Shown piece by piece: positions 22,335 through 22,909 of a stretch of 22,909 nt of DNA. The notes under the pieces are model-generated. The model did no database searches, had not been told where the DNA came from, and saw only the letters and a program-made list of their open reading frames with translations. Position 1 is the first letter of the stretch. Each line of letters opens with the position of its first letter. The DNA is from Escherichia coli (lineage in GTDB: Bacteria; Pseudomonadota; Gammaproteobacteria; Enterobacterales; Enterobacteriaceae): the NCBI RefSeq assembly GCF_003334305.1, contig NZ_QOWS01000039.1; one strand, 5' to 3'. The position numbers were made by a program, and so were the translations under genes.

Positions 22335-22600
22335 TCAGGTCTCCGCCGGTAGCCGTAATCGATTTGCCGAGCCGCAGACGGCGATTTTGCTTCTGACCAC
22401 CTCTTTCATGGCGTCCATGCCAACCCGCATGTAAAAGCGCGGATCGTTGCTCTGCTGATTTTCAGCAAACCAAGCTTTGATAGCGTCAGAGAAGGCGATC
22501 TTCAACTCGGTTGCAACGTTGACTTTGCAGACGCCTAGCCCAATGGTGCGACGAACATACTCATCCGGCACATCGCTCGCCCCATGCAGCACAAAGCGGG
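22335..22600 (-). pseudogene. 3' remnant of a class II tagatose/fructose-bisphosphate aldolase (GatY/KbaY-like) gene
   Basis: The C-terminal about 85 codons ([11 protein letters not shown]...[23 protein letters not shown]...CGSANRL) look aldolase-like. The upstream about 50 codons of the ORF ([22 protein letters not shown]...) do not, and homology stops at a perfect palindrome. Confidence 0.5.
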
Positions 22601-22644
22601 CAAAACAAACGGCATAAATTCCATTTGTTTTGCCCGCTTTGTGC
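22589..22644. repeat. Perfect 21-bp inverted repeat with a 14-nt loop at the aldolase truncation point
   Basis: GCACAAAGCGGGCAAAACAAA (22589-22609) pairs with TTTGTTTTGCCCGCTTTGTGC (22624-22644). No flanking T-tract. Confidence 0.8.
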
Positions 22645-22909
22645 TGCCTCACCATTTCTGTCAGATGTTTCACTTTCCTCTCCAGTTCAGATTGCTGCGA
22701 CATTAATCTTTCGTTTTGTTTCAGTTTATACTGCGTCATGGTGAAATAAAAATAAAACGAAAGATAATAGTTTTCTGATCTGATTCACAAAAGAAACATA
22801 ATGAAAGTCAGTGAAACGAGAGTAGCTTGCGCCAATGGGCAAGGTGGGCTTGCATTTGCTTAATAGAAAGGCGTTAATAGGCAAAACGAAATGAAACGAA
22901 AGTTTTACG

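Follow-up and report, generated by a model that had tools for sequence, protein, structure and literature searches.

We analysed a 22,909-nt stretch of Escherichia coli DNA (RefSeq assembly GCF_003334305.1, contig NZ_QOWS01000039.1; hereafter the window), near whose right end a perfect palindrome lies at the broken end of an aldolase gene, kbaY. Our comparison suggested that the palindrome and the gene fusion around it are very probably a scar left by two, possibly three, mutational steps in a decayed, island-borne copy of the N-acetylgalactosamine (aga) operon. In the first step the start of kbaZ would have been joined to the end of kbaY, and in the second a short patch copied from one arm of an imperfect inverted repeat would have made that repeat perfect.

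The kbaZ-kbaY fusion and the palindrome within it

Only one long open reading frame (ORF) spans the palindrome (22335-22739, minus strand). In the NCBIfam search, its residues 41-128 corresponded to positions 197-284 of the 286 positions in the KbaY profile (156.5 bits against a cutoff of 542), and its residues 23-49 corresponded to positions 1-27 of the KbaZ profile. The ORF aligned to known families as these two halves only, and none of the NCBIfam profiles gave it a full-length match above the curated KbaY/GatY class II aldolase cutoff. A first-pass annotation, made from the sequence alone, had proposed that an aldolase gene was truncated at the palindrome and had lost its 5' two thirds by recombination or deletion. 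This was confirmed, as the homology to aldolase ends within the left arm, at 22592. The same annotation described the ORF as running on beyond the palindrome into unrelated sequence. The ORF does continue there, but the sequence is that of kbaZ codons 1-23 and its leader.

Nucleotide alignments gave the same picture. The aldolase remnant shared 85-87% identity with Enterobacter kbaY and 78% with E. coli kbaY (over 22359-22592). On the other side, 97% identity to K-12 extended from 22604 to the window end, and no alignment was obtained left of 22604. Among 5,426 complete E. coli genomes, there were 5,319 in which the match to the window began at 22604 and extended to the right only, under the kbaZ gene of each genome. 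RefSeq places two adjacent 'class II aldolase' pseudogene fragments at the palindrome; one of these actually represents the start of kbaZ, and the fusion explains this pair. No full-length relative of the aldolase remnant was found in a protein search, which returned short proteins only, including a plain fusion (P0059). The leader stop codon TAA of K-12 is CAA in the window, and the ORF there runs 22 codons upstream of the kbaZ GTG (22674-22739, minus strand). The K-12 leader itself would encode a short upstream ORF, MTQYQLKQNERLISQ followed by a stop.

P0059 is a kbaZ-kbaY fusion that lacks FARF, the four novel residues between the kbaZ and KbaY parts of the window ORF, and is encoded on an ENA metagenome contig, L005, where the ORF has an early stop. 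The gene context of L005 is that of the island (agaR, fusion, malX, malY, alpha-galactosidase gene, rsmI'), and the identity to the window in the malX, malY, alpha-galactosidase and rsmI' context was 98.7-99.5%. At the joint L005 reads ...GTTTGTTCCGCACATCCGCTGGTGCTGCATGGGG... (in a longer reading, ...GCCGTTTGTTCCGCACATCCGCTGGTGCTGCATGGGGCG...; exact junction sequence, GTTCCGCACATCCGCTGGTGCTGCATGG). Native kbaZ runs through the repeat CCGCTGGTGCTG and is followed directly by the aldolase, with a single copy of the repeat kept. Judged from its sequence, L005 would be the simple product of joining between 12-nt direct repeats.

The divergence between L005 and the window was uneven. For malX, malY and the alpha-galactosidase gene the difference was 0.5-1.3%. 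It was 6.5-11.5% for the aldolase remnant, the kbaY-malX spacer and the kbaZ-agaR intergenic region (L005 622-1312, window 22222-22909), with many L005-private changes in the operator region. Local relaxed constraint, hypermutation or a recombination patch could account for this pattern.

The window, L005 and K-12 were aligned three ways to define the patch. At the joint, a single block differs between the window and L005: the window reads ...GTTTGTT-TTGCCCGCTTT-GTGCTGCATGGGG..., with the 11 nt TTGCCCGCTTT in place of the 14 nt CCGCACATCCGCTG. We took L005 as ancestral and the window as derived because these 14 nt are native kbaZ sequence. On the coding strand, kbaZ codons 12-15 contain AAAGCGGGCAA 31 nt upstream, and TTGCCCGCTTT matches its reverse complement exactly; the random odds of an 11-nt match of this kind are ~4^-11. 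The patch is bordered by two anchors of 6 and 6-7 nt, TTTGTT (complement AACAAA) and GTGCTG(C) (complement (G)CAGCAC). Both anchor pairs pre-exist in K-12 kbaZ and in L005, in the arrangement CAGCAC-11 nt-AACAAA, 14-nt spacer, TTTGTT-14 nt-GTGCTG. The sequence states, their distribution over the genomes and the exact complementarity are direct observations. On its complementarity and anchors, the patch appears to bear the signature of a quasipalindrome-to-palindrome template switch.

The 21-bp perfect inverted repeat reported by the first-pass annotation (22589-22644) is real and forms a subset of two 24-nt arms (Table 1). GTGCTGC, the first 7 nt of the aldolase remnant on the coding strand (plus strand 22586-22592), is at the same time the outer end of the left arm. 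The 24th pair is given by position 22647, which is C in the window (AGG codon) versus T (AGA) in K-12, O145 and L005. This A-to-G change at kbaZ codon 9 was present in the palindrome-bearing copies that were read there and absent from K-12, O145, Escherichia sp. and L005. The hairpin dG went from -13.1 kcal/mol in K-12 to -17.8 in L005 and -34.2 in the window, where the stem formed by single-stranded DNA has 27 bp (z = -9.45). No shuffled sequence out of 200 reached this stability, which is far above chance. Folded as RNA, the palindrome also gave a 27-bp stem, with a dG of -52.4 kcal/mol.

The patched palindromic junction was found in 313 of the 5,426 complete E. coli genomes, one per genome (median 1 place); 10 metagenome contigs had it as well. 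Most of the 313 genomes carry the palindrome in perfect form. Nine genomes, whose origins include Switzerland, the Netherlands, Spain and the USA and which come from independent laboratories, have as their 14-nt spacer the exact reverse complement of the usual one, between unchanged arms. A private single-nucleotide polymorphism (SNP) was common to all five flipped loci examined. The spacer flip thus looks like one inherited event in apparently one clade, not an assembly artefact; independent recurrence of the flip was considered and is unsupported by these loci. An uncompensated arm mismatch was observed in the Santai lineage and in 3 of the 10 metagenome contigs. The ORF is frameshifted in strain fS149a, and one deletion reaches 22536. 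With these mismatches, this frameshift and this deletion, the palindrome is not protected.

Order of the events and competing explanations

Intact clusters were sought by scanning species-representative genomes with the MalX-like protein. They were found in Enterobacter cloacae, Enterobacter soli, Enterobacter hormaechei, Citrobacter, Kluyvera, Yokenella, Morganella and one Escherichia sp. The order is kbaZ, ~7 kb with agaV, agaW, agaE, agaF, agaA and agaS, a full kbaY, malX and malY, and the alpha-galactosidase gene follows malY in the Enterobacter and Yokenella clusters. Because intact relatives, E. coli O145 among them, carry kbaZ-agaVWEFA-agaS-kbaY-malX-malY, ~7 kb are missing in the window. 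The intact aldolase homologues are without the palindrome. E. coli kbaZ contains the 12-mer CCGCTGGTGCTG (Pro-Leu-Val-Leu), at KbaZ residues 27-30, and so does the kbaY of Enterobacter cloacae, Enterobacter soli and Kluyvera ascorbata, at KbaY residues about 200-204. The two copies are 6,963-7,064 nt apart, depending on the reference used, and the kbaY copy precedes CAYGG.

In the first step that we propose, an aga cluster of the order kbaZ-agaV-agaW-agaE-agaF-agaA-agaS-kbaY-malX-malY-(alpha-galactosidase) would have lost about 7.0 kb. The joint would have formed between the two copies of the 12-mer and produced an in-frame kbaZ'-'kbaY fusion, which would survive in L005. The island is a mosaic around this joint. 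The agaR/kbaZ' side is 97-99% E. coli-like, the kbaY', spacer, malX, malY, alpha-galactosidase and rsmI' side is 85-87% Enterobacter-like, and the switch coincides with the kbaZ'::'kbaY joint. Because of these different affinities, the joint may have arisen by illegitimate recombination between species instead of by a deletion inside one operon.

In the second step, a nascent 3' end would have paired with the opposite arm of the imperfect repeat through one short anchor; the template would have been either intramolecular, on the same strand, or intermolecular, on the opposite side of the fork. Eleven nucleotides would have been copied before the end returned to its proper template through the second anchor, which would replace the 14 nt and perfect the repeat. 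The 24th pair may be a further templated correction or a coincidental SNP. In a third step, the spacer would have been inverted in the nine-genome subclade, by an intermolecular template switch or by recombination between the perfect arms. The palindrome most likely arose after the deletion, because L005 has the same fusion and the same 12-nt repeat joint without it. The suggestion of the first-pass annotation that the palindrome was a recombination hotspot causing the deletion was not borne out, for the same reason.

Several points weigh against this history. The ancestral junction rests on one metagenome contig, L005. It was found in none of the 5,426 complete E. coli genomes, where the matches with a query coverage of 80% or more were the derived form at 88% identity. 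In a second metagenome collection it had 0 matches, and a permissive pattern returned 10 contigs, all of the derived form. The differing phylogenetic affinity of the two joint sides leaves a deletion within one operon unproven. The codon-9 A-to-G change is unexplained by the same switch event. The AgaR consensus used below, attributed to Ray and Larson (2004), was not found in our literature search. From all these data we infer how the events were ordered, the mechanism at replication and the absence of a function.

The fusion and the patch might also have been made in a single complex event. A replication or repair strand inside kbaZ would fold back on itself at TTTGTT/AACAAA and, after copying 18 nt, anneal again in kbaY at GTGCTGC, ~7 kb downstream, as in a templated insertion at a deletion joint by fork stalling and template switching or microhomology-mediated break-induced replication (FoSTeS/MMBIR); the L005 junction would then be an independent deletion. 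The product is formally compatible with such an event, the 6-nt and 7-nt anchors are rightly placed, and the intermediate of the stepwise route is the form that no complete E. coli genome contains; these points, too, count against two separate steps. However, L005 shares the island context and the aldolase breakpoint, and the single event would thus require two deletions to have ended independently within the same 7-12 nt. Mechanistically, switching back over 14 nt is also far easier than over 7 kb. We therefore regard the single event as improbable and two successive steps as the better account.

Sequencing or assembly errors were also weighed. Palindromes are a known source of artefacts, for example through fold-back chimeric reads that give an inverted duplication, and only one metagenome assembly supplies the ancestral form. 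However, the derived junction is present in 313 independently sequenced complete genomes and in the 10 metagenome contigs, and the flipped form is found in nine genomes from several countries, with a linked SNP in the five examined. L005 itself should be impossible as a de Bruijn chimera at k=141 over an overlap of 7-12 nt. An artefact is hardly credible on these grounds.

The first-pass annotation had offered the palindrome as the terminal hairpin of an inserted element. A mobile-element end or hairpin whose insertion truncated the aldolase (IS200/IS605-type, a miniature inverted-repeat transposable element (MITE), or a repetitive extragenic palindrome/bacterial interspersed mosaic element (REP/BIME)) would fit a long perfect hairpin exactly at a gene truncation, on an island that holds insertion sequence (IS) remnants (IS1 and ISEc52) away from the palindrome. 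Against this, all bases of both arms were traced to kbaZ or kbaY sequence or to a copy thereof. There is one copy per genome and no second copy in the window, and the neighbours are malX and agaR, with no adjacent transposase. The chance that a mobile element made the palindrome is close to nil.

We also considered whether the hairpin is functional, as an RNase III site, a stabiliser or a translational block in the PagaZ-driven malX-malY-alpha-galactosidase leader, or as a protein-binding DNA palindrome. Its perfection in most carriers, its strong RNA stem and its position, with an AgaR-regulated promoter region on one side and intact downstream genes on the other, are in favour of a function. 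On the other hand, the arm mismatches of the Santai lineage and of the metagenome contigs are uncompensated, the spacer is able to flip, and the ORF is frameshifted or deleted in some strains. L005 lacks the palindrome and still has intact downstream genes. The recent common ancestry of the island copies accounts for the low diversity. The absence of a T-run means that the hairpin is not a terminator. On balance, a function of any of these kinds is very unlikely. The same low probability holds for the particular idea that the 27-bp RNA stem was retained after the deletion and sets malX-malY-alpha-galactosidase expression (e.g. as an RNase III processing site or 5' stabiliser), which we consider a long shot. 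If it were true, a template-switch mutation would have given a wild E. coli lineage a new regulatory RNA element.

As an intrinsic terminator, the palindrome was not called by the terminator scan, and the T-run is absent on both strands. The Rfam search in E-value mode gave just sub-threshold matches to generic miRNA hairpins for the palindrome, with 15-33 bits against gathering scores of 50-90.

Relation to known mutational mechanisms

Deletion between short direct repeats is the closest parallel to the first step. K-12 reportedly carries a deletion in its aga operon, agaW'-agaA', attributed to Brinkkotter et al. in 2000. The two cases are alike in the loss of internal aga genes by illegitimate joining, with one short repeat (12 nt) kept. 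They differ in the endpoints, which run in the window from kbaZ codon 27 to kbaY codon about 200 (~7 kb). They differ also in the copy concerned, as the event in the window struck a second, island-borne and partly Enterobacter-like copy, possibly at an interspecies joint.

Template switching homogenises the arms of inverted repeats in E. coli (PMC5941160, PMC7202029). The proposed second step resembles such quasipalindrome mutations, known from the Ripley 1982 model, the E. coli thyA hotspot and the lacZ QP5/QP6 reporters of the Lovett laboratory (PMC7202029, PMC5941160), in the one-step, multi-nucleotide perfection of an imperfect repeat in E. coli. In both, the new bases match the reverse complement of the other arm exactly, complementary anchors lie on both sides, and arm pairing is gained. 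In contrast to laboratory quasipalindrome revertants, the window holds a natural population variant, and it lies in a pseudogene made by what would be an earlier deletion. The converted tract is also longer: 11 nt for 14 (net -3), compared with 1-4 nt in the classic quasipalindrome hotspots.

In S. cerevisiae, intermolecular template switching inverts the spacers of inverted repeats (PMC8604942). The nine flipped genomes are similar to those cases, with perfect unchanged arms and the spacer present as its exact reverse complement. The yeast coding-sequence cases concern changes of 2-5 bp, whereas the spacer here is 14 nt long and lies between 24-nt arms. Unlike in yeast, the 24-bp arms make RecA-mediated arm recombination an alternative and inseparable route.

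The feature is accordingly a natural instance of known mechanisms, namely microhomology deletion, quasipalindrome correction and spacer inversion, and no new kind of element or system. Its value lies in the series of states that the locus records: the native quasipalindrome (K-12 kbaZ), the fused form (L005), the perfect form (313 genomes), the spacer-flipped form (9 genomes) and mismatched, decaying copies. Comparable series come mostly from engineered reporters or statistical surveys, whereas all of these states are found here in wild isolates. The locus is a possible natural test case for the rates of template switching, and for aligners and variant callers that mistake such events for clustered substitutions. 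A strain with the window sequence, ATCC 43896, is obtainable.

The intergenic region, the island and its genes

The coordinates of all features are collected in Table 1.

Table 1. Features of the fusion, the palindrome and their surroundings in the window.
Feature	Coordinates	Strand	Remarks
malX-like phosphotransferase system (PTS) IIBC gene	20650-22221	-	First intact gene downstream of the scar; follows kbaY in intact relatives
kbaY-malX intergenic spacer	22222-22334	-	Conserved with Enterobacter; 8-bp GC-rich hairpin at ~22250-22283
Chimeric ORF, 134 aa, pseudogene product	22335-22739	-	22-codon leader extension + kbaZ codons 1-23 + FARF + KbaY C-terminus
3' remnant of KbaY-type class II tagatose-1,6-bisphosphate aldolase gene	22335-22592	-	85 codons + stop; Enterobacter-like origin
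Left perfect arm (24 nt, presumably derived)	22586-22609	.	GCAGCACAAAGCGGGCAAAACAAA; 7 nt aldolase + 11-nt patch + 6 nt native kbaZ
Patch, probably templated (11 nt)	22593-22603	-	Coding strand TTGCCCGCTTT; replaces the presumed ancestral 14 nt CCGCACATCCGCTG
5' kbaZ fragment	22604-22673	-	GTG start 22673-22671; codons 1-23; 97% identity to native E. coli kbaZ
Spacer between arms	22610-22623	.	14 nt, CGGCATAAATTCCA; native kbaZ codons 17/18-22
Right arm (24 nt, putative template/donor)	22624-22647	.	Exact reverse complement of left arm; native kbaZ codons 9-17
kbaZ-agaR divergent intergenic (promoter/operator) region	22674-22909	.	97.4% identity to K-12; agaR starts just beyond the window end
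AgaR-operator-like site (putative)	22705-22728	+	Consensus scan
AgaR-operator-like site (putative)	22743-22766	-	Consensus scan
AgaR-operator-like site (putative)	22787-22810	-	Consensus scan
AgaR-operator-like site (putative)	22882-22905	-	Consensus scan

The first-pass annotation had noticed an AT-rich tail with repeated GAAACGAAA-like words, and this observation held. The GC content of the tail is 0.35 versus 0.45 for the whole window, and the tail contains repeated TTTCGTTT-type words; the repeats are those of the kbaZ-agaR intergenic region. The AT-richness is that of a promoter region. A 24-nt AgaR-type consensus (WRMMTTTCRTTTYRTTTYNYTTKK), attributed to Ray and Larson, gave 4 matches in 22705-22905, one of them perfect, where 0.07 were expected. 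Judged by their sequence and place, the GAAACGAAA words are putative AgaR operator repeats of this intergenic region. The region resembles the K-12 kbaZ-agaR intergenic region (AgaR, DeoR family) in its identity and in TTTCRTTT words at equal positions. It differs from the K-12 region in being a second, island copy, whose promoter faces the pseudogene and malX-malY-alpha-galactosidase rather than the aga catabolic genes. AgaR is described as binding tandem repeats between agaZ and agaR (PMC5018945, which cites Ray and Larson 2004).

The whole window is an E. coli genomic island with a tyrosine integrase adjoining phoH and efeUOB. Its sequence was matched at 100% identity by E. coli ATCC 43896 and by many further E. 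coli chromosomes. Genomes that bear the island retain the native aga locus, seen in them as a second place of match. Immediately past the right end of the window RefSeq annotates agaR, the repressor of the N-acetylgalactosamine operon, and to the left of the fusion lie the malX-like PTS gene, a MalY/PatB-like gene and the 'enterotoxin'/alpha-galactosidase gene. The mosaic described above forms a slice that is syntenic with the chromosomal garD-agaR-aga-malXY-agal-rsmI region (window 17080-22909 and L001 8700-10800).

In 31 of the 5,426 E. coli genomes (e.g. O145:H28), kbaY-malX-malY was found at the native aga locus. The island malX and malY are just 71-74% identical to the O145 versions. In these 31 genomes, such as E. 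coli O145:H28 RM13514 (L047, 10111-13862), kbaY is followed by malX-malY-like, LysR and MBL-fold genes, which replace agaBCDI-yraHIJK.

The gene at 17560-19473 (minus strand) encodes a 637-aa secreted protein annotated as 'enterotoxin', and newer RefSeq records with the same WP accession call it 'alpha-galactosidase'. No NCBIfam match was obtained for this protein. Its place as the last gene of the Enterobacter/Yokenella kbaZ...kbaY-malX-malY cluster suggests a role in sugar utilisation rather than as a toxin. The hairpin in the kbaY-malX spacer (22250-22283; GAAGGCGC...GCGCCTTC) is partly kept in Enterobacter, has an RNA dG of -21 kcal/mol (z = -2.7) and is without a T-run after it.

At the left end of the island, within 1417-3154, two RtT-sRNA-like repeats lie by the tyrosine integrase. 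The part at 9463-17080 contains a TOTE-conflict-system primase pseudogene, a gene for a 1,656-aa AAA-domain protein and one for a 478-aa hypothetical protein, and this gene group may be a defence module. In E. coli WL164 (L003, ~5608-6068), a further deletion fuses an inovirus Gp2-like gene (window ~9463-10026) to position 22536. The genes lost there are those of the AAA proteins, the alpha-galactosidase gene, malY and malX, along with most of the aldolase remnant.

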